A stretch of 64,000 nucleotides of DNA from a bacterium (GCA_965261595.1 CBDHDG010000004.1:320001-384000); one strand, 5' to 3'; shown: positions 4,801 to 48,357, counted from the first letter of the stretch. Notes: generated by a model from the sequence alone, not told the origin. Translations and numbers: made by a program.

Positions 4801-6069
4801 TCAGGTTTTGTAGCCGTAAGCGTCGCTCAGCGCGCCCATCAGCGCCCCGAGATCCCCCCCCCCCCGCACAACGGGGACATCGCCCAGGCGCCCCTCCGTC
4901 GCCGCCGGGTCCTTGAGGCCGGTGGCCGTCAGGACGGCGACGACGGTGTCGCCCTCCCGGATCCGGCCTTCCGATCTCAGGTCCCGAATCGCCGCCAGCG
5001 CCGCCAGGGAAGAAGGCTCCGCGTAAATCCCCTCCCGCGCGCCCAACTCCGCCTGAAGCGAGAGGAGGTCTTCATTCTTCGCGGTCGAGGCCAGGCCGTC
5101 CGACGCCCTCAGCGCGTGAAGCGCCTGATAGGTGCTTTGGGCGACGTTGATGGACCCGGCCGCCGACGGCGAGGGCGGGGTCCGCGAGGGGATGGCGTCG
5201 ACGCCATCCCGCAGCGCGGCCTCCAGGGAGCCCGCCGTCTCGCCCGCGACCATCCTGGGTCGAGAGGTGATGAACCCCATGTCCGCGAACTCGCGGAACC
5301 CCTTCCAGACTCCGAAAATCGCGTCCCCGTAAGCCACTGGAAAGACACAGAACTCCGGGGCGCGCCAATCGAGCTGCTCGCAGACCTCATAGGCGATCGT
5401 CTTGTAACCGTCCACGCCATAGCAATTGCTCCCGATGGGCGGACCGAAGAAGGGCGAGGTCGGATACCACCCCAAGTCGCGGATGGCCGCCTGGAGAAGC
5501 GTCCACCGGTCCTCCTTTTTCTCGGTCGCGACGGCCATCGCGCCGTAGGATCGGATCTGCGTCACCATCGCCGACGCGGCCCCCTTCACCGTCAGGACCA
5601 CGCACGGCAGGCCCTGCCGGGCAGAATAGGCCGCCGCCGCCGCGCCCGCGTTCCCCGTCGAGCTGACCCCCACCGTCTTGGCCCCGAACCGCTCCGCCAT
5701 GCCGAGGGCCGTGACCGCCAGCCGGTCCTTGAACGACCCGGTGGGGTTGCGGGACTCGTCCTTGAGATAAAGCCCGGGAACGCCGATGCGCGCGCCCAGG
5801 CTCGGGCAATGGAGGAGGGGCGTTATCCCCTCGTCCAGCGAGGCGACATCATCCAAATCGGCGGGCAGGAACTCGTGATACCGCCACATGTTGAGGGGGC
5901 GATCGGCCAGAGTCTCTTTGCGGAAAGCGCTTCGAATGCCCGCGTAATCGTACGCGGGGGTGAGGTTCGACGGGGCCTCGGCGGCGCAGTGGGGGCAGCC
6001 GTCGAATCGGGGCGCCACCGGAAAAGAAGCGTCGCATCGGATGCATTTCAGGCCGGTCAGGAAACTCAC
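4801..6069 (-). CDS. Threonine synthase-like PLP-dependent enzyme
   Basis: N-terminal CxxC..CxxC, LKDESRNPTGSFKDR PLP-lysine motif, SSTGNAG, EPSS, TATGLKD. Confidence 0.88.
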   Translation of the reverse strand: MSFLTGLKCIRCDASFPVAPRFDGCPHCAAEAPSNLTPAYDYAGIRSAFRKETLADRPLNMWRYHEFLPADLDDVASLDEGITPLLHCPSLGARIGVPGLYLKDESRNPTGSFKDRLAVTALGMAERFGAKTVGVSSTGNAGAAAAAYSARQGLPCVVLTVKGAASAMVTQIRSYGAMAVATEKKEDRWTLLQAAIRDLGWYPTSPFFGPPIGSNCYGVDGYKTIAYEVCEQLDWRAPEFCVFPVAYGDAIFGVWKGFREFADMGFITSRPRMVAGETAGSLEAALRDGVDAIPSRTPPSPSAAGSINVAQSTYQALHALRASDGLASTAKNEDLLSLQAELGAREGIYAEPSSLAALAAIRDLRSEGRIREGDTVVAVLTATGLKDPAATEGRLGDVPVVRGGGDLGALMGALSDAYGYKT

Positions 6070-6087: not shown

Positions 6088-7272
6088 TCAGGGTTCGAGG
6101 ATTTCGAGGTTCCGGCTCATCGCCGTCCATCGCCGGCAGCCATCCTCGGTGACGAGGACCGTATCTTCCACCTGGAGACCGCCCATGCCGAGCTCGTAGT
6201 AAGGGGCCTCGACGGCGAGGACCATGCCGGGCTCGAGCGGCGCATGGTCACCGGGCGCCAGGCGGGGGCCGTCGTACCCGCCCAGCGCCAGTCCCATTCC
6301 GTGGCCGACGTGCTGGCGGTTGTAATGGGGAATCCCACGCCGGCGGACTTCCTGGACTGTGGCGTTGAAAATCTCGTCTCCCGTCGCGCCCGGCCCGACC
6401 ATCCCCAAGGCCCGATCCTGTCCGGCGAGGAGGGCGTCGTAGTAGCCCGCGGCCTTGTCCGCGGACTTTCCCAATGAGAAGGTCCGCGCGGTGTCCGAGA
6501 GATAGCCCCGGTAGACGCAGCCCACGTCGAAGCGGATCAGGTCCCCCTTCGCAAGCTTGTCCTCGGGGAAGTTGTACATCCCCAAGGCCCCGCTCCTTCC
6601 GAAACCCACGTGGGCCATGTTGGGGCGCCCGTCCCGCTTGAGCTGACCCACCTCGAAGGCCAAGGCCATCTCTCTTTCCCCCAAGCCCTCCCTCGCCAAC
6701 AAGACCGCCTCGGTGATGGCTGCCTCGGTGATGCCGACGGCCTTCTCAAGGCGCTCGATCTCAAGGGGGGTCTTGATCATCCGAATCTCGCGGAAGACGG
6801 CCATCGCCGGCTGAAGGGCAAGGCCGGGCAATTCCCGCTCGATCTTCGGGACGAGCGCCGGGTCGAGACCCCGCTCGTCGTACCCCACCGTCCCCTTACC
6901 CAGCCCGGCCGAGGCAAGAATCGAGACGACGCCCTCCAGGAATGAGCCCACCGGCTCCAGGTCGATCCCCAGGGCCTTGATCCGCTCCTCCCGCCCGGTG
7001 AGGGCGGCCGTCTCGTCCAGCTCCCGGTAGAACGTTCCGTACGTCGCGACGCCGGCGGGGCGGACGGGGGAGTCTTCCAGGTAGTCCACCTCGCTGCGGG
7101 GGATCGCCACCCAGGGGCGATCCAGGCCTTTCAAGGGAGCGGCGGCGGCCAGGTCGCCCTGCCTCCACACGCCGGAAAGGTAGAATACGTTCGGGATGTT
7201 CGTCGCGGCCAGAAGCCCGTCCAGACCTTTTTCGGACAGGACCCTCTGAGCGCGGGGGACGTTGATGATCAC
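6088..7272 (-). CDS. M24 family Xaa-Pro peptidase-like protein
   Basis: RMIKTPLEIE, FDVGCVYRGYLSDTART, HVGHGMG, AVEAP, QVEDT: complete M24 metal-ligand set. Confidence 0.9.
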   Translation of the reverse strand: MIINVPRAQRVLSEKGLDGLLAATNIPNVFYLSGVWRQGDLAAAAPLKGLDRPWVAIPRSEVDYLEDSPVRPAGVATYGTFYRELDETAALTGREERIKALGIDLEPVGSFLEGVVSILASAGLGKGTVGYDERGLDPALVPKIERELPGLALQPAMAVFREIRMIKTPLEIERLEKAVGITEAAITEAVLLAREGLGEREMALAFEVGQLKRDGRPNMAHVGFGRSGALGMYNFPEDKLAKGDLIRFDVGCVYRGYLSDTARTFSLGKSADKAAGYYDALLAGQDRALGMVGPGATGDEIFNATVQEVRRRGIPHYNRQHVGHGMGLALGGYDGPRLAPGDHAPLEPGMVLAVEAPYYELGMGGLQVEDTVLVTEDGCRRWTAMSRNLEILEP

Positions 7273-7509: not shown

Positions 7510-8819
7510 TCACCTGGGAGGCCTTTCGTAAACCAACCGGTGGTATTTCCACTCCCCCCAATTTTTCTCGTGCTTTTTGTAAACGTCTTGGGCCTCTTCA
7601 TGGCTCAGGAGAAATGTTCGTGCATCTTCATGGCTCAGGAGAAATGTTCGTGCATCCCACAGCTCCGGAAACACCCTTTTGGCCAATGTCTTTTGCAGAT
7701 AGGGAATTCCGGATCCCTCTTCTCCGTGAGTTGAAATCCGGCCTCCACCGAGCACCCGAGCGACCATCGCGATATGCCGGTCACGAAAGTTCGAAAAGGC
7801 TTGGTCCAGTACAAGCAAGGCCTCAATGAGTGAAGCGGGCCAGGCCAATAGGGGTTGATCGGAAAATTGCAAAGTAAAAACGATTGCGCATCGGTATCGC
7901 TTCCGGAAGTACAAGTCAATTTTGCGACTCGCTTCGGCCTTCAGCCTTTTCCCATGATCCCCATGTACCTTTCCCAGCCCGCCCAGTTTCTTCAAATCAT
8001 TGGAATAGGCTTTGAGATAGATCTCCTGAAATCTCGCCGAGAAGAGGAGACTATGGCTTTTACGCGGCGGCGTCTTTCCTCCCGGGGATGGAAAAACCGC
8101 ACGATCCAGCCACTCAACGACTGTCGAACGAAGCGTTCCATTTTGGTCCAGGTCTCTGAGACGATTTTTCAAGGCATGGTTCCTGGACTTCAATTCGGGC
8201 GGCAGGATGTCAAGATTTTCAATCATATTCTTGCATGTCTTTCGATAATCCAGTAGAGACTGAAATTCCTGCTCATCACGAGTCGGGTAAACAACCTCAT
8301 TTCGTGTCCGTGATCCTTCCTTATCGTTTTTGGGAGCCTTTCCCCTCGGCAGTCTTTTCTTCTCTTCCATCAACCCTTTTTCGAACTCAACTTTCCCTGA
8401 TACATATTTCTCCAGTTTCGGATCCCGGAAACCATCAACCATTCGACTTCCAGAAATCTGTAGGAATCCCTCCCGCTGCCCCCGAATAATTGACTCCTAA
8501 AATCATAAAAGCTCGTGGTTTGCAGGGTTTCCAATAATGGAAGATGGTCCCGAACCAGATTGAAGATTTCCGCCGCGCGTCGCACATGCTGTTCGATCGG
8601 TGGAATGTCATGTTCGGGAACATAATCAGACGAAAGTAATGTGCGCGCGAACTCCAGCTCGTCCAGGATTTGTGCAAACCAGATTTCAAAGGCCTGATGC
8701 GTGCGAATGAAGAACTTCTCGTCGGGATCTTTTTTCCTTCTCCCCTTTGGCTTCACAAGGGGAAGCCGGTCAGGGAAAATATAACCATCATAAGTGTTGG
8801 GCTTATTTTTAGAAGCCAT
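7510..8819 (-). CDS. Tryptophan 2,3-dioxygenase family protein (long form), split by a 1-nt frameshift near 8432
   Basis: N part 8370-8819: DEKFFIRTHQAFEIWFAQIL, LLETL..FYDFRSQL; C part 7510-8442: FRDRHIAMVARVLG..SGIPYL..VFPELW. Adding one G (ATG-G[G]T-TTC) joins them as WLM-GFRD. Confidence 0.85.
7595..7656. repeat. 30-bp perfect tandem duplication inside the TDO 3' end
   Basis: tcttcatggctcaggagaaatgttcgtgca x2, encoding DARTFLLSHE twice on the - strand. Confidence 0.95.
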
Positions 8820-9626: not shown

Positions 9627-10958
9627 ATGTCGAAAGCTCTGGACAAGCTCAACGAGCGGCTCACGGCCCACATGGAGGTGATCCTCCGCTGCACGGTCGA
9701 ATCCAAGAAATACGGCCGGCTCCTCCTGGCCTCCCCGCCGGTATCCCGCTATCCGTACGTCTACCCCCGGGACACGAACTGCGCCGTGCAGCTTTTCCGC
9801 CGCCTGGCCGGTTCGGAACGCGGCTACGACGCCGGACCGCGGGCCTTCGAGTTAATGAAATCGATGGCCCACTTCATGAAAGATGTGGTTTCCGAAGACG
9901 GCAACTGGGGTCAGCGATACAGCCTGGAGGGCGAAGACAAAAGCCTTTACAAGCAGGAAGACAACGTCGCCCACGGGGCGGCCATCATCTGCAACTATCT
10001 CCTGACCGCCCACCGCTTGAAACAACCCGTCGACGATCTGCAAAGCCTGCTCGATGCCATCGAAAAGGCCCTGCGCCACGCGCTCCGTGATTTCTACCAG
10101 CCGGAGCTGAACCTGTTTCAGTCCACCACGTCCATCCACGAATCGGCGATGGAAGAAGGTTACACGTGCTGGGTGAACTTCGCGTTCCTGTACGCGTTCT
10201 CGTTGGCGAACGAAGTGGCCGACAAATTCGACCAAGAGGGGCGGATCTCCCGTGATCACCTAAGCTTCCGAAAACACTTTCTGCATTCCGTCAACGAATT
10301 GTTCATGTCCGGGAATCGATACGTCCGGCGCATCGATCCGCAAGGACACATGGACTTCCGGCCGGACTTCACCTTGCTGAGCCCGTTTTACTTCGGTTTT
10401 CTGCATTACCGGAAAGAGATGGAGAAGAGCGTCGACTTCCTGGAGAAACAGTTGTGGGACCCCCAATTCGGGATGATCATGCGCTACCTCCCGTTCCGCC
10501 GGGACTTTACCACCCACGTCCACGCGGGCAACGGCCCCTGGCTGCAATACACGGCCATCCTGGCCCAATTCCACTATTGGAACGGAAACACCGAACGGGG
10601 CGACGGGCTGCTGGCCGCCATCGACGGGTACAGGAATGAAAAAGGCGAGATCCCCGAGCACCTGTCCACCTGCGCCCGGTTCGAGGCGTTCAGGAAAAAC
10701 GAATGGAAGACCGGCCTCGACTTCGACAAGGAATTCGACAAACACATCCTCCTGGACGACGTGGACTTCGACAAGATGCTGGAGGAGACGAACCACATGG
10801 CCGCGGCTTATCGGGAAACGGGAGGCCGGGGCATGTTTCGCGATTCGGTGGAAGCGGAGGGGGGCTACATCCAGTTCGCCACGCCCCTGATGTGGTCGCA
10901 TGTCGAGTACGCCCGCGCCCTCCTGGTCCGGGACAAAGACTGGTGGAAGGTCGCCTGA
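9627..10958 (+). CDS. Six-hairpin glycosidase, GH15 (glucoamylase)-like
   Basis: YPYVYPRD, WGQRY, QEDN, IHES, GNGPW, IPEH, ATPLMWSH correspond to GH15 (alpha/alpha)6 motifs. Confidence 0.7.
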   Translation: MSKALDKLNERLTAHMEVILRCTVESKKYGRLLLASPPVSRYPYVYPRDTNCAVQLFRRLAGSERGYDAGPRAFELMKSMAHFMKDVVSEDGNWGQRYSLEGEDKSLYKQEDNVAHGAAIICNYLLTAHRLKQPVDDLQSLLDAIEKALRHALRDFYQPELNLFQSTTSIHESAMEEGYTCWVNFAFLYAFSLANEVADKFDQEGRISRDHLSFRKHFLHSVNELFMSGNRYVRRIDPQGHMDFRPDFTLLSPFYFGFLHYRKEMEKSVDFLEKQLWDPQFGMIMRYLPFRRDFTTHVHAGNGPWLQYTAILAQFHYWNGNTERGDGLLAAIDGYRNEKGEIPEHLSTCARFEAFRKNEWKTGLDFDKEFDKHILLDDVDFDKMLEETNHMAAAYRETGGRGMFRDSVEAEGGYIQFATPLMWSHVEYARALLVRDKDWWKVA

Positions 10959-11015
10959 CACCCTGGATTTCCTACAACGAAGCGGCTTGGCCGACGATCC
11001 ACGCGTCCATCATTC

Positions 11016-11045
11016 TTGACCGCCTATGCGGCCCTACGCTAAATT
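11016..11045 (+). promoter_or_regulatory. Putative sigma70 promoter of the grd operon
   Basis: TTGACC-18 nt-TAAATT about 200 nt upstream of the GTG at 11245. Confidence 0.35.
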
Positions 11046-11244
11046 GCTCCATTGGCGGACCGCGCCCCGGACATTGTCCCGGCACCATGACGCGCGCGCG
11101 GAAACCCGCCAAAATGATGAAGTGGAAATCCTTGGAATCCCACGGTTCTTGTCCCGCCCCCCAGGGTGGACCTCCTCGGGGGGGAGTCCCTCGGGGCGGA
11201 GCCTCCCCGGGCGGACGCACCGAACGGTGAAAGCGGAGATTGCC

Positions 11245-12507
11245 GTGAAGCTGACGCTGAATTCCTTCCCGGTCGATGAAATCAAGGATTCCCGAAAAAC
11301 GGCCCTCGACGGCCACCGATTGCTGGTGAACCGGCAGGAGATGCGCGACCTCCTCCTCGAGGATGAGCGGCTCATCTCCGCGGAGATCGACTTCGCTCAT
11401 CCGGGCGAGTCCTGCCGGATCATCAACATCCTCGACATCTTCGATCCCCGTATCAAAGCCGAGGGCGAAACCTTTTGCGGAATCCTCGGCCCCGCGAAGC
11501 TCGCCGGAAGCGGGACGACGAACGTCCTGATGGGAATGAGCATCGTGACGTGCGGCCCGTTGGACGGGGCGGAGGACGCCTTCCTGGACATGACCGGTCC
11601 TTGCGCGGAGCTCAGCCCGTTCGCGGGTCTCGAAACGGTGGTCGTGCGCCTGACGCCCGCCCCCGGCCTGGACCGGGGCGGTTTCGCGAGGGCGGCGGTC
11701 GAGGCGGGCGTAAGGGCCTCCGGCTACCTGGGAGAAACCACACGGTCCGGGACGCCCGGGGGCTCGGAGCGCTTCGAGCAGACTTCGCTGTCCGGATCTA
11801 ACGGGCGCGACGATTCCCTTCCCAGGATCGCGTACATCTATCCCATTTACTCTCAGGGCGACGCCCGGGACATGCTCCTTTACGGGAGAAACACGCGCGA
11901 CCTGATCCCGACGCTCATCCACCCCAACGAGGTGATGGACGGGGCCGTTGTCTGGGCGGGGTTCTGCCGGCCCGCCAAGAATGTGACCTACAACCATCTG
12001 AACCACGGCGTCATCCGGACGCTCTACGAGGCTCACGGGCGCTCCATCTCCTTTGCGGGCGTCATCGTGACGAACCACCCCAAGCTGTTCTCCGACAAGG
12101 TCCTCTACGCGGAGATGATGGCCCGTTTCGCGGCCGACATCCTCGCCGCGGACGGGGTCATCGTCACGAAGGATTCCGGCGGCCAGGCGGACCCCGACTT
12201 GATGCAGATCTGCGAGAAGTGCGAGGAGCGGGGCGTGAAGACCACCCTTCTGACCATGGAAGCGGCCGGCGACGGCGGCTCTTCGGCGGGCGCGCTGGTG
12301 GACGCAAGCCCCCGGGCCGACGCCATCGTCGCCGTCGGAAATACCGTCGAGGAGGTCCGACTCCCCCGGATGGAGCGCATCCTAGGGGGCGACCGCCTCA
12401 AGGACTTTGAACAGGACCCGCGCGATCCCGTCGAGGTCTGTTTCAACAAGGTCCCCGGCGCCATCAGTCTGTTCGGCGACAACCGTCTCGCCGCTCTGGA
12501 GATCTAA
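11245..12507 (+). CDS. grdE: Glycine/sarcosine/betaine reductase component B proprotein subunit (GrdE/GrdG/GrdI family)
   Basis: GTG 11245 after GGAG; AHPGESCRI, PTLIHPNEVMDGA, LYEAHG...GVIVTN, ADGVIVTKD..G.AD.D, ADAIVAVGN; first gene of a grdB-grdA-grdC run. Confidence 0.88.
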   Translation: MKLTLNSFPVDEIKDSRKTALDGHRLLVNRQEMRDLLLEDERLISAEIDFAHPGESCRIINILDIFDPRIKAEGETFCGILGPAKLAGSGTTNVLMGMSIVTCGPLDGAEDAFLDMTGPCAELSPFAGLETVVVRLTPAPGLDRGGFARAAVEAGVRASGYLGETTRSGTPGGSERFEQTSLSGSNGRDDSLPRIAYIYPIYSQGDARDMLLYGRNTRDLIPTLIHPNEVMDGAVVWAGFCRPAKNVTYNHLNHGVIRTLYEAHGRSISFAGVIVTNHPKLFSDKVLYAEMMARFAADILAADGVIVTKDSGGQADPDLMQICEKCEERGVKTTLLTMEAAGDGGSSAGALVDASPRADAIVAVGNTVEEVRLPRMERILGGDRLKDFEQDPRDPVEVCFNKVPGAISLFGDNRLAALEI

Positions 12508-12529
12508 AGATTTTTTCGGAGGCCCGGCC

Positions 12530-13834
12530 ATGGCCGCCCCATACCGCGTGGTCCATTACCTGAATCAGTTTTTCTTCGGCCTCGGCGGCGAAGAGAAGGC
12601 ATCCATCGAGCCGACCGCGAAAGCGGGTCCCCTCGGTCCCGGCCGGCCCTTGCAGGAAGCGCTGGGCGGCGAAGCGGAGATCGTCAAAACCGTCACGTGC
12701 GGGGACAACTTTTTCGCCGAGCGCGCCGAGGAGGCATCGGATCGGCTCCTGGATCTCATCGAGGAGTCGCGGCCCCACCTCCTCCTGGCCGGGCCCGCCT
12801 TCGACGCCGGCCGCTACGGCCTGGCGTGCGGCCACTTGTGCCGAAAAGCCGGCGCGACCCTGAACATCCCCGCCATCACCGCTCTGGCGCCCGGAAACCC
12901 GGGCATCGAGCATAGCAAGGACGTCTACATCCTCTCCACCTCGAACAGCGTCCGCGGGATGAACCCGGCCCTCCAAGACATGGCCCGCCTCGGTCTCAAG
13001 CTGATGCGGGGAGAACCCCTGCGTTCCGCCCGCGAGGAAGGATATCTTCCAAGGGGGTTCCGGAAAAATTTCCGCGTCGAGAAGCGCGGAGCGGATCGGG
13101 CGCTCGACATGATCCTGGCCAAGGTCCGGGGGCGGGCTTTCGAGACCGAGCTCATCCTGCCCAAGTTCGACGGGGTCCCCCCGGCCCCGCCCGTCAAGGA
13201 CCTGGAATCCGCCAAAATCGCCCTGGTCACCACGGAAGGACTGGTCCCCAAAGGCAACCCCGACCGGATGGACTCGACCCGGGCCGACCGTTACGCCAAA
13301 TACCGTATCGAGGACCTTGACGCCCTCGACGCCTCGGCCTTTGAATTCCACCACGGGGGATTCTCCACCGCGGACGTCAATAACGACCCCCACCGGGCCG
13401 TTCCCCTGGACGTCCTCCGGGAGATGGAGCGCGAGGGCCGGATCGGCAAGCTCTTCGGCGACATCTACAGCTTTGCCGGATGCAGCACGTACTACGAAAC
13501 GGCCGCCGGGATGGGGCGCGAGATCGCCCGGGAGCTGAAGGGACGCGGCGTGAACGCCGTCCTCATCCTCTCATCCTGAGGGACGTGCACCCGCTGCGGG
13601 TCAGCGGTCGCGAAGGAGATGGACAGAGAGGGCGTTCCGGCGGCGCTGATCACCACCTTGATCTCGGTCGCCAAAAACGTGGGCGCGAACCGAATCGTTC
13701 CCGGCGCCGGCGTCCCCCACGTAACCGGAAATCCGGACCTGGGACCGGAGGGCGAGCGAGCGCTTCGCGCCGCGCTCGTCGAGCGGGCCCTGACGGCCCT
13801 CACCACCCCGCTGGAAGAGCAGCGGGTGTTCTGA
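12530..13834 (+). CDS. grdB: Glycine/sarcosine/betaine reductase selenoprotein B (GrdB/GrdF/GrdH family), 434 aa, Sec at codon 350 (TGA 13577-13579)
   Basis: RVVHYLNQFF.GLGGEEKA N-terminus, GPAFDAGRYG, VPKGNPD; the TGA reads through as ILSS-U-GTCTRCG, in frame with the 13619-13834 ORF (VGANRIVPG..PH). Confidence 0.95.
13580..13611 (+). promoter_or_regulatory. Bacterial SECIS-like hairpin for GrdB Sec
   Basis: CCGCTG-CGGGT-CAGCGG stem (13591-13607) starts 11 nt after the UGA; G-containing apical loop 17 nt after the UGA. Confidence 0.75.
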
Positions 13835-13930
13835 ACATTCGGCGGCGGGACCGCCCCTTCGAGATTCGGCGGCGGCATCCGGCTAAGGCCAGCCCGGCGG
13901 TTTTCGGGCGATGATTCGAGAGGAGGATCC

Positions 13931-14395
13931 ATGCTCAAAGGAAAAAAGGTGATCGCCCTGGGCGAACGGGACGGCGTGCCGGGCGACGTCGTTGCCGAGT
14001 GCGCCGAGGCGGCGGGTGCCCAGGTTGTCCTTCAGATGACCGAGTGCTTCGTCTGAACATCGGCCGGCGCCATGGACATGGAGCGTCAGGGCGATATCCG
14101 ATCCATCGTCGAAGAGCGCAGCCGGGAAGACCTCATCGTCGTTCTCGGCGCGACAGACGTGGATTTCCTGTCGCTGGCGGCGGAGACGGTCGTCTCCGGC
14201 GACCCCAGCTATGCCGGTCCATTGGCGGGAGTCTCGTTGGGACTCCCTGTGTACCACATTCTGGAGCCCGGGCTTCGCGCGGAGATCCCCGCGCCGCTCT
14301 ATCAGGAGAAGCTTGAGCTCGTCTCGATGGTCGCCGACCTGCCCGGAATCGGCCGGGCGTTGGAGAAGTTTCGCGCGGCGCCCACGGGAGATTGA
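13931..14395 (+). CDS. grdA: Glycine/sarcosine/betaine reductase selenoprotein A, 154 aa, Sec at codon 42 (TGA 14054-14056)
   Basis: AGGAGG RBS; MLKGKKVIALGERDGVPG...TECFV-U-TSAGAMDMERQ...AETVVSGDPSYAGPLAGVSLGLPVYHILE, the GrdA CxxU signature. Confidence 0.96.
14057..14087 (+). promoter_or_regulatory. Bacterial SECIS-like hairpin for GrdA Sec
   Basis: GGCG-CCAT-GGAC-ATGG-(AG)-CGTC hairpin (14066-14087); GGAC loop 17 nt after the UGA, same spacing as in grdB. Confidence 0.75.
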
Positions 14396-14455
14396 CACCC
14401 GGACGGCCGTGGCGCGGCCCCCGGCGGCCTCACGCCTGCTGACCCACGGAGGATC

Positions 14456-15838
14456 ATGCGAAAGGCGACGATTTCGGCCTCAACGTGCGTTCTCGCGCAC
14501 ACGCCCGCGCTCGTTCGGTACGGCTCGAAGCCCTTCCGGGAGAGCCGGCGCGACGGCGGCTTCCTGCCGGCCCTCGAAGCCCGGATCCGGTCCTTCGAGG
14601 CGGCCGCCGCCTACCCGCCCAACCAGGTGTTTATCGGGAACCTCCCCCCCCAAGCCCTGCGGGACATCGATCCTCCTTGGTATGAACATCGGTCACCGGG
14701 GGCGGAACGAACGTCGCCCACGGGTGAGATCATCCCGGAGGACCGTTTCCTCGCCCTCCTCAACTCAGCCGACGCGTTCGGCCTCATCGACCTGTCTGAG
14801 GATTTTTGCCGAACGATAGGGCTGGAGGGCGCCGGCTCATCGCGCGACTTCTCGGGCCTGGGGAGCGCGGACGCCGAGCTGCCCCTGTTCTTCGAGGGTG
14901 AGGCCGTGGGGCGAATCCGATCGGACCATGAAGAAGACGATTCCCTCAAGGCGGCCGTTCTGCTCGAAAACCTGGCAGCGAAGGCCTCGGCCTTTCAGGC
15001 GCTGGAGCTGCTGCTGGCTCACCCCGGCGTTCCCGGCCGCGATTCGCTGGATTTCATCATCGGCTGTTCGGAGGAAGCCGTCGGCGACCGCTACCAACGG
15101 GGCGGCGGGAACCTCGCCAAGGCTGTCGGCGAGATGGCCGGACTCGCCCAGGCCGGCGGAGCGGACGTCAAGAACTTCTGCGCCGGCCCCCTTCAGGCGC
15201 TCATCTTCGCGGGCAGCCTCGTGGCGTCCGGGGTGTTCGACCACGTGGCCGTCGTCGGCGGGGGTTCCCTTCCCAAGCTGGGGATGAAGGCGTCCGCCCA
15301 CCTGGAGCGCGACATGCCGATCCTGGAGGACGTCCTGGCCGGCTTCGCCGCATGGGTGTCGGCGGACGGAGAAGGCCCCCGGATCCGATTGGATGGAACG
15401 GGCTTTCACCGGATCGGCGCCGGAAACGCCCAACAGGCCATTCTCGAATCCCTCGTGGCCGAGCCCCTCGGGCGCCTCGGCCTGCGCATCACCGACGTCC
15501 CCGTGTACGCGACCGAGCTCCACAATCCCGAGATCACCGTCCCCGCCGGCGGCGGCGACGTTCCCCGGACGAACTACAGGTTCATCGGGGCGCTGGCCGC
15601 CCTTCGCGGGGAGATCGACCGCTCGGAGATCGACCGCTTCGCCGACGACCACGGGCTGCCGGGGTTCTCCCCCTCGCAAGGGCACATTGCCTCCGCCGTG
15701 CCGGCCCTCCCCCACGTCCTTCGGCGGTTCACGGAGGACGGTCTCGACCGGGCGTTCTTTCTCGCGAAGGGGAGCCTCTTTCTCGGCCGGATGACCCGGC
15801 TTTCAGACGGGGTTTCTTTCCTGCTTGACGCCGGTTGA
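14456..15838 (+). CDS. grdC: Glycine/sarcosine/betaine reductase component C beta subunit (FabH-like)
   Basis: YPPNQVFIGN, LLENLAAKAS, CSEEAVGDRYQRGGGNLAKA, FCAGP, ELHNPEIT.PAG.GDVP, PSQGHIAS, KGSLFLGRMT. Confidence 0.93.
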   Translation: MRKATISASTCVLAHTPALVRYGSKPFRESRRDGGFLPALEARIRSFEAAAAYPPNQVFIGNLPPQALRDIDPPWYEHRSPGAERTSPTGEIIPEDRFLALLNSADAFGLIDLSEDFCRTIGLEGAGSSRDFSGLGSADAELPLFFEGEAVGRIRSDHEEDDSLKAAVLLENLAAKASAFQALELLLAHPGVPGRDSLDFIIGCSEEAVGDRYQRGGGNLAKAVGEMAGLAQAGGADVKNFCAGPLQALIFAGSLVASGVFDHVAVVGGGSLPKLGMKASAHLERDMPILEDVLAGFAAWVSADGEGPRIRLDGTGFHRIGAGNAQQAILESLVAEPLGRLGLRITDVPVYATELHNPEITVPAGGGDVPRTNYRFIGALAALRGEIDRSEIDRFADDHGLPGFSPSQGHIASAVPALPHVLRRFTEDGLDRAFFLAKGSLFLGRMTRLSDGVSFLLDAG

Positions 15839-15924
15839 GGGCCGATCGGCGGGAGGGGCGGCCGGAAACCGGTCCCTTCTCATCGGGCGGACTCCAAGCG
15901 CAACCGGAGAGACCGCCCGAAGAA

Positions 15925-15953
15925 ATGACACGTCAACGACAAACTGCTACCAT
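15925..15953 (+). promoter_or_regulatory. Putative sigma70 promoter for the Rieske-amidohydrolase pair
   Basis: ATGACA-17 nt-TACCAT with extended -10 TGn. Confidence 0.4.
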
Positions 15954-15995
15954 CGACACGAGTGGACTGAAGAAACAGATTGGGGAGAAGCAAAC

Positions 15996-16361
15996 GTGCC
16001 GGGGTTGTATGTGGGAAACGTGGAGGAGTTCGAAGAGCGCGGGTGCAAGATCATCGGCCAGGGGGACATCGAGATCGGCGTGTTCCGGGTCGGGGAGGAA
16101 TATTACGCCTACCGAAATGTCTGCCCCCACCAAGGCGGCCCGGTCTGCCAGGGGCGGATCCTGGGCAAGGTGGAACAAAGCCTAGCCGAGGACAAAACAA
16201 GCCGGGGGCTGAGGTTCTCGAACGATCACATCCACATCATCTGCCCCTGGCACGGTTATGAGTTCGATCTCCAAACCGGGGTTCATCCGGGGGACCATCG
16301 CGTCCGCCTGGTCGGTTATCCGATAGAACGCCGCGGAAATGAAATCTACGTCGTCGTGTGA
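15996..16361 (+). CDS. Rieske [2Fe-2S] ferredoxin
   Basis: CPHQG...CPWHG Rieske motif; GTG at 15996 after GGGGAG. Confidence 0.92.
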   Translation: MPGLYVGNVEEFEERGCKIIGQGDIEIGVFRVGEEYYAYRNVCPHQGGPVCQGRILGKVEQSLAEDKTSRGLRFSNDHIHIICPWHGYEFDLQTGVHPGDHRVRLVGYPIERRGNEIYVVV

Positions 16362-16393: not shown

Positions 16394-17641
16394 ATGAGTG
16401 ATCCTCAGACGGAGCAGGTGGCGGAAAAAATCCGGGAGTTGGAGCGAATCGGCGATCAGACCGACACGCGCGAAATCCTGGCCCTGGCGAAGAAGCAGGC
16501 CATCGAGAGGAAATACGAAGACTACGTGATCGTGGACGCCGACTGCCACCACATGGAAACCGCGTCCTGGAAGAATATCCTCCAGTACGTCGAAGACCCG
16601 GTCATCCGCCAACAGGCCCTGGACTTCCAGGCCCGGGTCGCGTCTCCCCATTACGGCCTGATCGATCCGCTCGCCTACCACCAGGACGCGGGCGGACGCA
16701 TCCGGCACCAGCGCCACCAAGGCTGGAGCGAGTCCGGCGAAGACGCGGGCGTTCATCGCGACATCGTCCAGATCCGTCGCTCGCTGGAGTGCCTCGGGAT
16801 CGACTATTCGGTGCTCTTTCCGACAAGAATGCTGGCCCTGGGGATGAACCCGCAGATCGAGATGGAAGTCCTGATGGGCCGGGCCTACAACCACTGGATG
16901 GTCGATCAGGTGCTGCCGGGCGACGACCGGATTAAGTCGCTCCTCTATCTGCCCTTCAGCGCGCCGGACGCGGCGTTGCGCACGATCGAGGAGTTCTCCG
17001 ACAAACCCGGCGTGATCGGCTTCCTGGTCACGAGCGTCCGGAACATTCCGGTTCACGACGACCGGTACATGAAGATTTACGCCGCCCTCGAGGAGCGCGG
17101 GCTTCCCCTCGCCTTCCACGGCGGTTACTCCTGGCACGACCCGAGCATGGCCCAATTCGACCGGTTCATCGGGGTGCACGCCATGGGCTTCGTGTTCTGG
17201 CCCATGGTCCACCTGATCAACTGGGTGATCCACGGAATCCCCGAACGGTTTCCGAACCTCGACATCATTTGGCTCGAGGCCGGTCTGGCCTGGGCGATCT
17301 TCCTGATGGAGCGCCTGGACGGCGAGTACATGAAGCGCATCTCCGAGGCGCCGCTGCTGAAAAAGAAGCCGAGCGAGTACATCCGGGAGATGCACTTCAC
17401 CACCCAGCCCCTCGAAATGGATAACCTCAAGGCGCTGGAGCTGAACTTCGAGATGCTCAACGCCGAGACGCAGGTCCTGTACGCCTCGGACTGGCCGCAC
17501 TGGGATTTCGACCTCCCCAGCACGATATTCGATCTGCCCTTCCTCAGCGATCAGGCCAGACGGAACATCCTGGGCGAGACCGCGATGAAGCTGTTCAAAC
17601 TGGAGAAGCCGCGCAAAAAGATCATTCCCGCCGACAATTAG
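16394..17641 (+). CDS. Amidohydrolase_2-fold protein, candidate dinuclear oxygenase
   Basis: VDADCHHME, RAYNHW, LAFHG, ERFPNL..WLEAG, ASDWPHWD; AGGAGG RBS; directly after the Rieske gene. Confidence 0.88.
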   Translation: MSDPQTEQVAEKIRELERIGDQTDTREILALAKKQAIERKYEDYVIVDADCHHMETASWKNILQYVEDPVIRQQALDFQARVASPHYGLIDPLAYHQDAGGRIRHQRHQGWSESGEDAGVHRDIVQIRRSLECLGIDYSVLFPTRMLALGMNPQIEMEVLMGRAYNHWMVDQVLPGDDRIKSLLYLPFSAPDAALRTIEEFSDKPGVIGFLVTSVRNIPVHDDRYMKIYAALEERGLPLAFHGGYSWHDPSMAQFDRFIGVHAMGFVFWPMVHLINWVIHGIPERFPNLDIIWLEAGLAWAIFLMERLDGEYMKRISEAPLLKKKPSEYIREMHFTTQPLEMDNLKALELNFEMLNAETQVLYASDWPHWDFDLPSTIFDLPFLSDQARRNILGETAMKLFKLEKPRKKIIPADN

Positions 17642-18522
17642 AAGACGCCCGCCGGATCATGTCGAATGTCCGAAGAGCAGGCAGCGCCTCTTCCTGAATC
17701 ATCATGCCGATCTCGGCCCCGACCCCTCCGATTCGGGCGGCCTCGTGGAGGACGGCCGCGCGGTGGGTCTTCCTCACCGAGGTCAGAATGGTCTCCCGGT
17801 CGAGGGGGGCGACGGTCCTGAGATCGATCACCTCCACGTCCATCCCTTCCTCCGCCATCCGGTCCGCGGCCGAAAGGGCCAGGGGGACCATGGCCCCCAG
17901 CGCGACCAGCGTCAGATCGCTTCCCCGCCTCCGGACCTCCGCCTCTCCCAGTGGGACCGTGCAATCCCCCTCCGGAACGTCGCCCTGGACGGAATAGAGC
18001 CCCTTGTTTTCCAGGAAAAGGACCAGATTGTCTTCCCGAATGGCCGTCTTGAGGAGCCCTTTGGCGTCGGCGGGATTCGAGGGCATGACGACCCGGACGC
18101 CGGGGACGTGCAGGAACCAGGCTTCGAGGCTCTGGACGTGCGTCGCGCCGTTGGGGAACTGGCTCCCTAGGGCGCGCGGATGACGGCGGGGACCTTCACC
18201 TGCCCCCCCGACATGTAGCGGATCTTCGCCCCGAGGTTGACGATCTGGTCCATGGCCAGGGTGATGAAATCAAAGAATTGAAGCTCCGCCACGGGGCGGG
18301 TCCCGGCGATGGCGGCGCCGATGGCCGCGCCGACGTAGCTGGTCTCGGAGATGGGCGTGTCGATCACGCGGCCCGGTCCGAACTCGGCCAGCAGGCCCCG
18401 GGTCACCGTGAAGGACCCGTCGAAAATGGCGATGTCCTCCCCGAGACAAAAGACCAGGGGTCGCGTCGCATCTCTTCCCGCAGGGCCTCGTTCAGGGCTT
18501 CGGCGAACGTGATTCTACGCAA
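17638..18522 (-). pseudogene. 2-oxoacid/acetoin dehydrogenase E1 beta subunit, disrupted and 3'-truncated
   Basis: GEDI, RVIDTPISE, PVAELQFFDF, QSLEAWF, PSNPADAKGLL, VIDLRTVAPLD; in-frame TAG at 18167-18169, several frame changes, normal C-terminus missing. Confidence 0.8.
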
Positions 18523-18534
18523 AATCGAAATCCT

Positions 18535-19582
18535 TCAAGCAAATACGTCCGTCAACGCCTCTTCATCCGCCGGGGGCGGACTGGAAAGCGCGAACTCGGC
18601 CGCTTCTTCCACCTCTTTCTCCACCCGGTCCCGTATGGCCGCCTCTTGCCCTGCGCTCAACGACCCCGCGTCCTTCAACAACTTCCTGAGCCGGTCAATC
18701 GGGTCCCGCTTCAGCCAGGCCTCCTTTTCCTCGGCGCTGCGGTATCGCTCATGATCGGCGGTGTAGTGGCCCTTGTGACGATAGGTTTTGCACTCGATGA
18801 GCGTCGGGCCTCCCCTTCCCCCCCCTCCCCCTCCCCTCCCCCTCCCCCTTTCGGGCGCGCGCCACGGCGGATTGGACGGTTTCATAAACGGCGACCGCGT
18901 CGTTTCCGTAGATGACCACGCCGGGCATGTCGTAAGCGGACGCGCGGGCGCCGATGTCCTGGACGGAGGTCGAGACCCCGACGGCGACGGACATGGCGTA
19001 GAGGTTGTTCTCACAGATGAAGATCTCCGGCAGCCGCCAGAGGCTGGCCATGTTGAGACACTCGTGAAACGTCCCCTGGTTCGCGGCGTCGTCGCCGAAG
19101 AATACGACGGTCACCTGGTCCGTCCCCTTGACCTTCGCGGCGAGTCCCCCGCCCAGCCCCAGGGGCAGCCCGCCGCCGACCAGGCTGATGGTCCCCAGCA
19201 TCCCCACTATCGATGCTCTGGACGTGGAGGGTTCCGCCCTTGCCCTTGTTGTAGCCCGTCCCCTTGCCCAGGAGCTCGGCCAGAAGCCGCTTCATCGTCC
19301 CGCCCTTGGCCAGGACGTGGCCGTGCCCCCGGTGGGTGCTGACGATGTAATCATCCGGACGCAGGCAGGCGCACGCACCGGCGGCGACGGCCTCTTGACC
19401 GATGTAGGGATGCAGGTTGCCGGGGATTTGCCGGGCGGCGTGCATCTCGAGGGATTTCTCCTCGCACCGGCGGATCCGGAGCATCTGCTCGTAGATGCCC
19501 AGAAGGAGCGCGGCGCTTTCGAGGGAGGTCCACTTGCGGCTCTTGCCCGGCGCCTTCGTGGGGGCCGCCCAAACACTTGCAT
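18535..19582 (-). pseudogene. 2-oxoacid/acetoin dehydrogenase E1 alpha subunit, several frameshifts
   Basis: LHPYIGQEAVA, STHRGHGH, FFGDDAANQGTFHECLN, ENNLYA, PTLIECKTYR..GH spread over three ORFs. Confidence 0.8.
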
Positions 19583-46815: not shown

Positions 46816-48249
46816 CTACCGATCGAAGTAATCCTCCAGCGCAATCCCGTCCTTCCCCCGCGTCTCGGCGCGCTTGAACATGGCGCGCGTTTCCTCGGGC
46901 AGATCGACGCGGACCGTGGCGTCCAGGGCGAGCTTGCTGCTGGGATAGGCCTTGTGGAAGGCCGAAGGGTCCGGCGAGGCCCCTTTCGCCCCCGGCACGA
47001 CGAAGTATCGCGGCTCTCCCGTATGGGCATCGATGGGCTGGAATCGGGTCGCGATCGCCCACAGGACCTGGGCCTCGTCGAACACGTCGATGTCGTCGTC
47101 CACAACCACGGCGAGCTTGATGTAAGGCGCCGCCCCCAGGACGGCCATCAGCGCCGTCTTCCCCTCCCCCGTCTCGAACCCCTCGGTCGTCGGCCGCCGC
47201 GTCATGGACACGTAGCAATGGAATCCCGCGCCCGAGGGCGGCACGTAAACGTCCCGCACCGTCGGAACGACCCGCCGGACGGCCTCGTGAATCGTCGCCT
47301 CGAAGATCACCGACATAAGGTGAAGGGTGTCCGGATGGCCGGAAAAGATGAATTGGTGGATGGGGTTCTCGCGATGCGTGATGGCCTTCACCGTCACCCG
47401 GGGACCCTGCTTCACCCTGCTGTATGTGAGGGACTGGTCCGCGAAGGGGGCCTCCGGGTGACGCTCGCCCGGGTGGATCTCGGCCTCGATGCACATCTCC
47501 GCCAACGCCGGGATCAGCAGGTCCACCGTCCGGCACGGGACAAGGTCCACCGGCTCGCCGCGCAGGCCGCCCGCGAGGGCCAGCTCGTCCACGCCCATCG
47601 GCGCCCCGTACGAGGCCGCCAGGGTGATCAGCGGGTCGACGCCCGGGAGGATGGCCACCTTCAGGGATTGGCCCTTCTCCTCGCACCGGCGGAAGAGGTC
47701 CGAAATGCCCGAGGTCTGGGTCAGCGACGGGATGAGGGTCTTGCCGTCCTTGACCATGAAGCGGTAAACGCCCATGCCCAGGGTCCCGGTGTCGGGGTCC
47801 CGGGAGACGCACACGCCGCTGGAAATATAGCGGGCGACGTCGTTCTCGTGGTGATGAACCAGCGGAAGCCGGTCCAGCGTGGCGTCGTCGCCGGTCAGAA
47901 CCGTCTCATGAACCGGGCCCGACGCGACGGTCCGGGGGGGGATCGGCATCGCAATCCGCTTCTGGAAAGTCGGGAGAATCTCAGCCTCGGGAACGTTCAG
48001 GGCAAGGGCGAAGTGGGCGCGCCGGGCGAAGAGATTGCTCGTCACGCGCCAGCCGGGAAGGTCTTTGACCGCCTCGAACAGGACGGCCGAGAAATCACCT
48101 CCCTCTTCCATCCGGTCGAGGACGGCGGTCATCTCCCAGGCCGGGTCCGCCGGCCGCTCCGTCCGGCGGAGCGCCCCGTGCTCGTCCAATATGCCGAGGA
48201 AATCCCGAAGATCGCGGTGTCGGACCCATGCTTTTTCAGCCAAAAACAC
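46816..48249 (-). CDS. UbiD-family (prFMN) decarboxylase
   Basis: DLRDFL, RDPDTG...GVYR, EAPFAD, VVVDDDIDVFD..VLWAIATR, DPS..K..LDAT. Confidence 0.9.
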   Translation of the reverse strand: MFLAEKAWVRHRDLRDFLGILDEHGALRRTERPADPAWEMTAVLDRMEEGGDFSAVLFEAVKDLPGWRVTSNLFARRAHFALALNVPEAEILPTFQKRIAMPIPPRTVASGPVHETVLTGDDATLDRLPLVHHHENDVARYISSGVCVSRDPDTGTLGMGVYRFMVKDGKTLIPSLTQTSGISDLFRRCEEKGQSLKVAILPGVDPLITLAASYGAPMGVDELALAGGLRGEPVDLVPCRTVDLLIPALAEMCIEAEIHPGERHPEAPFADQSLTYSRVKQGPRVTVKAITHRENPIHQFIFSGHPDTLHLMSVIFEATIHEAVRRVVPTVRDVYVPPSGAGFHCYVSMTRRPTTEGFETGEGKTALMAVLGAAPYIKLAVVVDDDIDVFDEAQVLWAIATRFQPIDAHTGEPRYFVVPGAKGASPDPSAFHKAYPSSKLALDATVRVDLPEETRAMFKRAETRGKDGIALEDYFDR

Positions 48250-48357
48250 CTCCTCTTCTCCAACCTGGACTTCCGGCCTCTACACTGCGGCCACGATGCG
48301 TCCCTTGTCAAATTCCAGCCGAATCCCCCCGCTCCTCCCGCTCATAGAGCGTCCCGA

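Follow-up and report, generated by a model that had tools for sequence, protein, structure and literature searches.

A Selenoenzyme Operon of the Glycine Reductase Type Whose GrdE-Family Subunit Lacks the Canonical Cleavage-Region Cysteines

Introduction

To our knowledge, only four substrates, glycine, sarcosine, betaine and proline, have been assigned to the enzyme family that includes glycine reductase, and fluoroacetate has been proposed as a fifth. The proprotein GrdE of glycine reductase is characterized by cleavage, at the Asn-Cys of its SGNC motif, into alpha and beta chains with an N-terminal pyruvoyl group. In the classical system, the subunit GrdD is thought to make acetyl phosphate. 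Here we analyze grdE', a gene that encodes a GrdE-family protein without the cysteines of the pyruvoyl-forming motif, together with the operon in which it stands first. The gene lies in a 64,000-nucleotide stretch of bacterial DNA (GCA_965261595.1 CBDHDG010000004.1:320001-384000), which we call the window and which corresponds to G000:C4:320001-384000 in our numbering of the source genome, G000 (6.17 Mb, 63% G+C, tRNA-Sec present). An earlier note on this DNA had reported that the motif was missing and had proposed an uncleaved, betaine-like or novel reductase for a substrate unable to form a Schiff base. We confirm the observation, while the interpretation is partly supported.

Of the described relatives, PrdA of D-proline reductase is cleaved at T420|C421 in a reaction that needs PrdH and PrdB, according to passages of PMC11229817, where the C421S and C421A variants are given as unprocessed. 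It is the only relative for which we found descriptions of cleavage mutants. GrdI and FarE lack the two cysteines and are described as non-proproteins in the sections of PMC10838667 that deal with them. The same sections present FarE/FarB of Cloacibacillus porcorum as a proposed fluoroacetate reductase in which FarE, a GrdE homolog, feeds GrdA and protein C. The literature searches yielded no paper on the clade of grdE' and, judged by titles and the openings of abstracts, none on systems without GrdD, and no paper joining Tectomicrobia with glycine reductase was found.

Both Canonical Cysteines Are Missing From the Cleavage Region

The gene and its diagnostic loop have these coordinates in the window:

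11245..12507, + strand: grdE', a GrdE-family (PF09338) subunit, 420 aa from the GTG at 11245; the listed open reading frame (ORF) is 11026-12507
11953..11982, + strand: loop W-A-G-F-C-R-P-A-K-N, in place of the canonical S-G-N-C-V-S-A-C-D-K-N

The product is a member of PF09338 (Gly_reductase), which it matches with 356.7 bits against a threshold of 22.2 over model positions 2-387 of 426. Its start is likely the GTG at 11245, to judge from a GGAG 7 nt upstream and from the N-termini of its homologs (MKLTLN). In the frame of the listed ORF, window positions 11905-12080 (+) translate to PTLIHPNEVMDGAVVWAGFCRPAKNVTYNHLNHG, and the cleavage region reads VWAGFCRPAKN (fuller segment IHPNEVMDGAVVWAGFCRPAKNVTYNHLNHG), with the Cys codon, TGC, at 11965-11967.

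To place this loop, we collected relatives from 120 listed protein-search hits, from 25 close loci, and from the best 80 of 584 confirmed loci of a family-wide pattern scan. The fetched loci gave 98 distinct GrdE-family proteins, 60 of which read SGNC-V[SA]ACDK, in line with the SGNC-type motif that the earlier note gave for GrdE and GrdG; 20 carry a query-like G[FY][CST][RKM]P loop and 18 fall in neither class. SGNY, SGVY and SGVH rows occur among the Cys-less types that are not query-like, both in the motif survey and in the tree described below. We then compared an alignment of 22 sequences of the query-type clade with one of 16 canonical sequences (16 of the 60 SGNC proteins) using hhalign, which matched them with a probability of 100 over 418 columns at 33% profile identity. 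The canonical Cys241 stands opposite a gap, and the query residues F239, C240 and P242 are matched to V242, to the Ser/Ala column 243 and to the second Cys, Cys245, respectively. In a MAFFT alignment, the Phe of the query occupies the column of the cleavage Cys and its Cys that of the Ser. Under two alignment methods, then, both canonical Cys residues are missing from the grdE' product, as the earlier note had claimed for the motif. Residues G238 and P242 are invariant across the 22 sequences of the clade alignment.

The residue that follows the aromatic position is Cys, Ser or Thr throughout the clade. In a tree of 87 rows the Cys form makes up a subclade of 9 rows (100*) nested among Ser forms, and the next clades carry Thr; an ortholog from another genome, in a matching grdE'-grdB'-grdA-grdC arrangement, has the Ser form VWSGFSRPTKN. 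This tree was a "quick" IQ-TREE run for which the only support values, marked here with an asterisk, are those of the Shimodaira-Hasegawa-like approximate likelihood ratio test. The rows comprise three references (from G001 and G002), 42 of the 120 listed hits, and 42 proteins taken from the 98 of the fetched loci (SGNC, 16 of 60; query-type, 11 of 20; other, 15 of 18). The 9 rows with the Cys-type motif come from independent records, and a contig from an RNA library, covering 11949-12159, leaves the Cys codon unchanged and differs from the window at a single position, 11997, outside the motif. For these two reasons the motif is not an assembly artefact.

An AlphaFold2 model of the grdE' product (predicted local distance difference test 89.6, predicted template modeling score 0.91) places the motif in a loop of residues 237-246 that follows a strand at 234-236. 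A search of the PDB by sequence returned spurious matches to designed repeat proteins only, with no GrdE or PrdA structure among them, and a Foldseek search of the PDB with the model gave nothing at E <= 0.001. Further along the protein, at window 12208-12219, the 22 sequences of the clade alignment have an invariant CxxC (C-E-K-C-E), whose cysteines are C322 and C325 when counted from the Lys codon at 11248. The motif is also present in several other non-canonical clades, and canonical GrdE keeps the first Cys only (N-C-K-K-I-E).

The grdE' Clade Is Distinct From the Named Subfamilies

By the curated cut-offs of NCBIfam, the grdE' clade is distinct from every named subfamily. The grdE' product scores 290 on the GrdG model (NF040793, cut-off 780), 157.1 on FarE (NF053623, cut-off 675), and 38.2 bits on PrdA (TIGR04480, cut-off 700), the last over ORF residues 294-413. 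The likeness to PrdA is thus a distant homology of the C-terminal half, and PrdA differs in its architecture and in having the Cys at which, in the passages of PMC11229817 already mentioned, it is cleaved. As for names attached to close homologs, protein P0006 (72% identical) is called "beta-aspartyl-peptidase" by NCBI while Pfam gives it PF09338 only, and that name is probably a mis-annotation.

A reference for betaine reductase was obtained by running the GrdH model on three genomes. The GrdH of Eubacterium sp. F2 (locus L124) passes it, with 784.5 against 775, and the gene before it supplies our single GrdI reference. This GrdI reads DGALISGSF-MPSSSKWSTY; it has Phe on the column of the cleavage Cys and no second Cys, in agreement with the status as a non-proprotein that GrdI and FarE are given in the relevant sections of PMC10838667. 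The label "betaine-like" in the earlier note therefore has a fair basis in principle, as the reference GrdI has Phe where the Cys would be. It does not hold by descent, because in the tree GrdI groups with the SGNC rows in one clade of 20 rows (100*), whereas the query-type rows form a separate clade of 28 rows (99*) that contains a W-x-G-F subclade of 20 rows (100*). GrdI sits on a long branch (1.78), so its exact placement is unsure. The query loop is also one residue shorter than that of the reference GrdI and carries G-F-[C/S]-R-P. Clustering inside GrdE was among the outcomes that the earlier note had named as refuting an uncleaved reductase; the tree places the query outside GrdE. On these sequence comparisons, the grdE' product is probably an uncleaved, as yet uncharacterized variant of a known enzyme family, and it is not GrdI-like by descent.

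The earlier note implied that a GrdE-family protein without the motif is a rarity, and here our results disagree. We scanned 1.84 billion 50%-identity representatives with HMMER and found 226 at E <= 1e-30; the best 150 of these, which, being ranked by likeness to the query, over-represent its side of the family, comprise 8 with the SGNC Cys, 6 of the query type, 135 with other Cys-less loops, and 1 that does not cover the site. The canonical Cys is therefore missing in 141 of the 150; around the query, sequence clusters without the pyruvoyl Cys outnumber those that have it. The whole W-x-G-F subclade is a single representative at this identity level, and the protein search listed 13 clusters of full-length homologs at 55-93% identity.

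The Partner Subunit and the Operon

Downstream of grdE', the window contains the following features of the same operon:

12530..13834, + strand: grdB', of the selenoprotein B family, with the selenocysteine (Sec) codon TGA at 13577-13579 in SSUGTCTRCG and the stop TGA at 13832
13343..13363, + strand: GrdB' loop EFHHGGF (canonical ETAHGGYDP)
13469..13495, + strand: GrdB' loop SFAGCSTYY (canonical TVGNGTSVA); its Cys is confined to the query subclade
13931..14395, + strand: grdA, selenoprotein A, with a CFVU motif and the Sec codon TGA at 14054-14056 (PF04723, 180.5 bits)
14456..15838, + strand: grdC, reductase complex component C subunit beta (NF040746, 532.9 bits against a cut-off of 450)

GrdB' passes the selenoprotein B family model (TIGR01918) with 482.7 bits against a cut-off of 65.45 and falls short of each of the specific models, scoring 448.1 on the GrdB equivalog (TIGR01917, cut-off 602.2), 498.8 on GrdF (cut-off 800), and 430.6 on GrdH (NF040795, cut-off 775). 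When 30 of the 89 partner genes were scanned with the GrdB model, five further partners from the query subclade scored 427-493, and of 13 partners of SGNC proteins 12 scored 614-774 and one 596. The two loops that had struck the earlier note as unusual are real and clade-specific: they are common to the 7 query-subclade partners shown, the Cys of AGCST being present in 7 of 7, and canonical partners, Binatia-type partners and the GrdH reference differ from the query at both. A TGA occupies the aligned Sec position in 88 of the 89 partner genes examined. Partners of the "other" GrdE-family types read UGTGTRC in 12 of 15 cases; UGTC versus UGTG was considered as a marker of the pyruvoyl state and dropped, since the GrdH reference also keeps UGTC. 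A fourth, weak GRDB-family match in the genome (G000:C5:687222-687620, 33 bits, 169-aa frame) has no Sec codon and lies away from any GrdE-family gene.

The operon grdE'-grdB'(Sec)-grdA(Sec)-grdC is intact, with two in-frame Sec codons. The genes grdA and grdC have a single match each in the genome, both within this operon. A simple fold of the sequence downstream of each UGA gave predicted hairpins. At the gathering score, Rfam found only tRNAs in the window and in four further loci, and over 10700-14500 its sole match was a chance snoRNA (E 0.15); with no riboswitch reported, RNA elements provide no hint of a ligand.

We were not able to find GrdD in this lineage. The GrdD model (NF040747, cut-off 350) gave at best 27 bits in the source genome and, for L011, L012, L025, L038, and L052, no genome match above 30 bits, whereas GrdA was found in five of these six genomes (the source genome and 4 of the 5 relatives). 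The classical system consists of proteins A, B and C, the last made up of GrdC and GrdD, together with a thioredoxin system; of GrdA, GrdC and GrdD, the source genome has GrdA and GrdC, with GrdD absent. Since none of the six genomes checked has GrdD, its lack characterizes the lineage and is no sign of decay, and it leaves the acetyl-phosphate step in the lineage without an obvious catalyst. No conserved gene that could substitute for GrdD was seen downstream of grdC in the relatives; in Binatia, an oligopeptide-type ABC transporter follows grdA. Two other observations concern Binatia: in genome G008 (locus L133), grdC-grdA lies about 3-5 kb from genes for the large and the flavin adenine dinucleotide-binding subunits of a xanthine dehydrogenase (XDH), and the Binatia grdE'B' loci have a distant Amidohydro_2 gene upstream.

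A 4.6-kb stretch of the window recurs in sequencing runs: at least 0.91 of its sampled words are present in 14 runs from 6 studies, and it is partially present in 6 RNA-library runs. The RNA-library runs that contain it are labeled as seawater or marine metagenomes, and four RNA libraries gave contigs, 90-100% alike, that cover parts of grdE', grdB', grdA, and grdC. The contigs cover the operon only in part, and the parts not covered are uninformative. We regard them as weak evidence that the operon is used, since RNA libraries may also contain DNA.

Paralogs and Their Conserved Neighborhood

The source genome contains three GrdE-family genes, none of which has SGNC. The second, on C5, shares 63% identity with the query and has the Ser form of the loop, GFS. 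Its cluster consists of DUF1989 (UAAP-like), grdE', grdB', Amidohydro_1, an XDH-type Mo subunit, Rieske, Amidohydro_2, and a cyclase-family protein. The Amidohydro_1 protein is hydantoinase/dihydropyrimidinase/allantoinase-like, with 257 bits, which is below the cut-offs. The order of this cluster is syntenic in L036 and L013, L025 has the run from grdE' to Amidohydro_2, and L038 follows it up to the end of the flank. The third gene, on C2, lies near genes for XDH, UbiD, Amidohydro_1, and DUF1989. Its pair (G000:C2:301914-304840, L037) has grdB first, adjoins two DUF1989 genes, shows a very divergent loop, FTVRATGISGHSPSTW, and is placed on a long branch. At least three of the examined genomes carry two paralogs each.

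Directly behind grdC, the window carries a gene pair related to part of the paralogous cluster:

15825..16361, + strand: a small Rieske [2Fe-2S] protein (PF00355)
16394..17641, + strand: an Amidohydro_2 (PF04909) protein, which pairs with the Rieske gene

The conserved part of the Rieske ORF runs from about residue 47 (relatives align from residues 47-61), and its true start is probably later than the listed one. Rieske proteins of this kind have five copies in the genome, two of them beside grd loci, and Amidohydro_2 has seven; in L013, L025, and L036, an Amidohydro_2 copy of 59-60% identity comes after the paralogous grdE'B' cluster. For the Amidohydro_2 neighbor, the ESM Atlas returned clusters named "putative amidohydrolase" only.

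Proposed Function and Competing Explanations

We hold it to be somewhat probable, on sequence evidence, that the grdE' product works uncleaved and without a pyruvoyl group, as one subunit of a substrate-specific "protein B" (GrdE'/GrdB') in a selenoenzyme system of the glycine reductase type. GrdE'/GrdB' would most likely act on an N-substituted glycine. The substrate would be a substituted acetate with a leaving group that does not depend on a Schiff base; its C-alpha would come under attack by the Sec of GrdB', and the carboxymethyl group would pass to the Sec of GrdA and then be reduced to an acetyl thioester on GrdC. For the class of substrate we tentatively suggest, giving it perhaps one chance in several, an N-acyl- or N-amidino-type glycine from the breakdown of N-heterocycles, such as N-carbamoylglycine (hydantoate), formiminoglycine or guanidinoacetate. 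This guess comes mainly from the operon of the 63%-identical paralog; moreover, the nitrogen of such compounds is unable to form a Schiff base, and this would fit the missing carbonyl cofactor. A more specific proposal, which we consider rather doubtful, is that the G[FY][CST]xP clade, with its GrdD-less GrdA/GrdC, constitutes a pyruvoyl-free selenoenzyme for the reductive C-N cleavage of N-carbamoyl- or N-amidino-glycine produced by a hydantoinase/Mo-hydroxylase pathway.

Several observations weigh against an uncleaved enzyme for N-substituted glycines. The clade keeps a possible nucleophile, Cys, Ser or Thr, at one column, after the Gly-aromatic pair and before the invariant Pro, and because of this conserved nucleophile-capable residue in the G-[FY]-[CST]-x-P loop we still allow a small probability for processing at a shifted site. 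The UxxCxxC of the partners of pyruvoyl-type enzymes is also kept, as UGTCTRC, in 20 of 20 query-type partners. A tree in which the 20 SGNC and GrdI rows are joined with the 28 query-type rows is not rejected (p of the approximately unbiased test 0.83) and its log-likelihood exceeds that of the unconstrained quick tree by 17 units, so that the query-type clade may be the sister of canonical GrdE. As regards the substrate, the heterocycle context belongs to the paralog, the copy in the window having the Rieske/Amidohydro_2 pair only, and tblastn of the genome gave 75 XDH-like high-scoring segment pairs, 56 UbiD matches, and 58 NMT1 matches. With so many copies in the genome, finding such genes nearby carries little information, and we give weight to the syntenic cluster alone.

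A rival reading is a glycine (or sarcosine) reductase of the lineage in which the carbonyl for the Schiff base is made at a shifted [FY]|[CST] site or by another group of the complex. Some protein B would be needed if glycine is used, and although none of the three GrdE-family genes has SGNC, GrdA and GrdC have been kept. The Cys/Ser/Thr column, which extends over 28 rows between invariant Gly and Pro, the UGTCTRC of the partner, as in canonical GrdB, and the possible sister relationship all speak for it. Pathways of the purine type, moreover, classically end in glycine. The column in question, however, aligns with the canonical Ser/Ala column and not with the cleavage Cys, and the query-subclade partners score 427-493 on the GrdB model (448 for that of the window) against a cut-off of 602. 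Thr is unable to give a pyruvoyl group. That C240 should be a shifted cleavage site is unlikely, considering that the Cys form is nested among Ser and Thr forms, that an ortholog has Ser, and that PrdA with C421S or C421A is unprocessed in the passages of PMC11229817 already cited; the change from Cys to Ser among orthologs is one that, in PrdA, blocks processing. We therefore consider this explanation unlikely on the whole. The GrdE/GrdB of Clostridia and Synergistota share with the query the fold family, the operon partners GrdA and GrdC, and the Sec motif of the partner; the query differs from them in lacking both Cys of SGNC-VSAC, in a partner with other GrdB loops that stays below the GrdB cut-off, and in a genome without GrdD.

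The earlier note had named a quaternary amine, a sulfonium or another N-substituted acetate as possible substrates. A betaine-like reductase for glycine betaine or for a sulfonium such as dimethylsulfonioacetate would account for Phe at the position of the cleavage Cys, and GrdI/GrdH resemble the query in pairing a PF09338 protein that lacks the cleavage Cys (Phe or gap) with a selenoprotein B that reads UGTCTRC. The marine labels of the RNA-library runs would also suit it, seawater being a habitat rich in betaine- and sulfonium-type solutes. The GrdI reference, however, belongs to the SGNC clade, apart from the query, the partner reaches 431 of the 775 needed for GrdH, and no betaine-type transporter and no quaternary-amine or methylamine-handling gene was seen among the neighbors scanned. 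The conserved neighbors of the paralog are instead ring-opening amidohydrolases and a Mo hydroxylase, which point to the breakdown of N-heterocycles. The proposal of an onium substrate is thus not supported, and we judge it distinctly unlikely.

An acetate substituted by something other than nitrogen (halo-, thio- or oxy-acetate) would parallel the proposal made for FarE/FarB with fluoroacetate, as FarE, too, lacks both Cys in the sections of PMC10838667 concerned, and the great diversity of the family, with 226 representatives at E <= 1e-30, leaves room for it. This is improbable, given a FarE score of 157 against 675, a partner that keeps the CxxC (UGTCTRC) where FarB is described in those sections as having none, and the lack of dehalogenation-linked genes among the neighbors seen. 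Finally, the missing GrdD and the split appearance of the neighboring E1 dehydrogenase genes might suggest a decaying or non-functional copy. We give this explanation hardly any credence: the frames are open with Sec codons at conserved places, 13 protein clusters preserve the full length at 55-93% identity, GrdD is absent from 6 of 6 genomes, and RNA-library contigs cover genes of the operon.

If the clade does cleave N-carbamoyl- or N-amidino-glycine supplied by a hydantoinase/Mo-hydroxylase pathway, this would represent a new substrate class. It would also give Grd-type chemistry a part in the breakdown of heterocycles by marine bacteria outside the clostridia, and the end product would not be acetyl phosphate. 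Were the substrate N-carbamoyl- or amidino-glycine, selenium-dependent reductive C-N cleavage would be tied to nitrogen recycling of the purine or hydantoin type outside the classical amino-acid fermenters. The family has few named substrates, yet 141 of the 150 nearest representatives have no cofactor-forming Cys, so that most of the chemistry among these clusters is without assignment. The clade is tractable in this respect, as it has two paralogs per genome, one of which stands in a conserved ring-opening cluster that narrows the candidate substrates. With GrdD missing, one may also ask by what route the acetyl group is released from the complex.

Other Genes in the Window

The remaining neighbors in the window, among them GH15-like, M24/creatinase-N peptidase and luciferase-like oxygenase genes, are not conserved in L011 or L012. 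Upstream of the operon, on the opposite strand, lie an M24 peptidase with a creatinase/prolidase N-domain (6088-7272, -) and a threonine-synthase-like pyridoxal phosphate enzyme (4801-6069, -), neither of which is conserved beside the operons of the relatives. XDH-type Mo subunits, UbiD decarboxylases and NMT1/SsuA-like binding proteins are very strongly expanded in the genome; one UbiD+XDH pair is found at 46915-50643 (-), and four NMT1/SsuA-like genes also occur in the window. The XDH/UbiD genes at 46.9-50.6 kb were considered as context for the operon and dismissed because of their many genome copies.

Two further regions contain ORFs of unusual appearance. An ORF at 7510-8442 (-) has a weak match to the C-terminal part of tryptophan 2,3-dioxygenase and a G+C fraction at third codon positions of 0.53, against about 0.85 in its neighbors; it may be foreign, or no real gene. 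At 17622-19207 (-), three short ORFs match pieces of a 2-oxoacid dehydrogenase E1 beta subunit (Transketolase_C, Transket_pyr) and an E1 alpha subunit (E1_dh); their appearance suggests genes that are split or frameshifted, or else errors of assembly.

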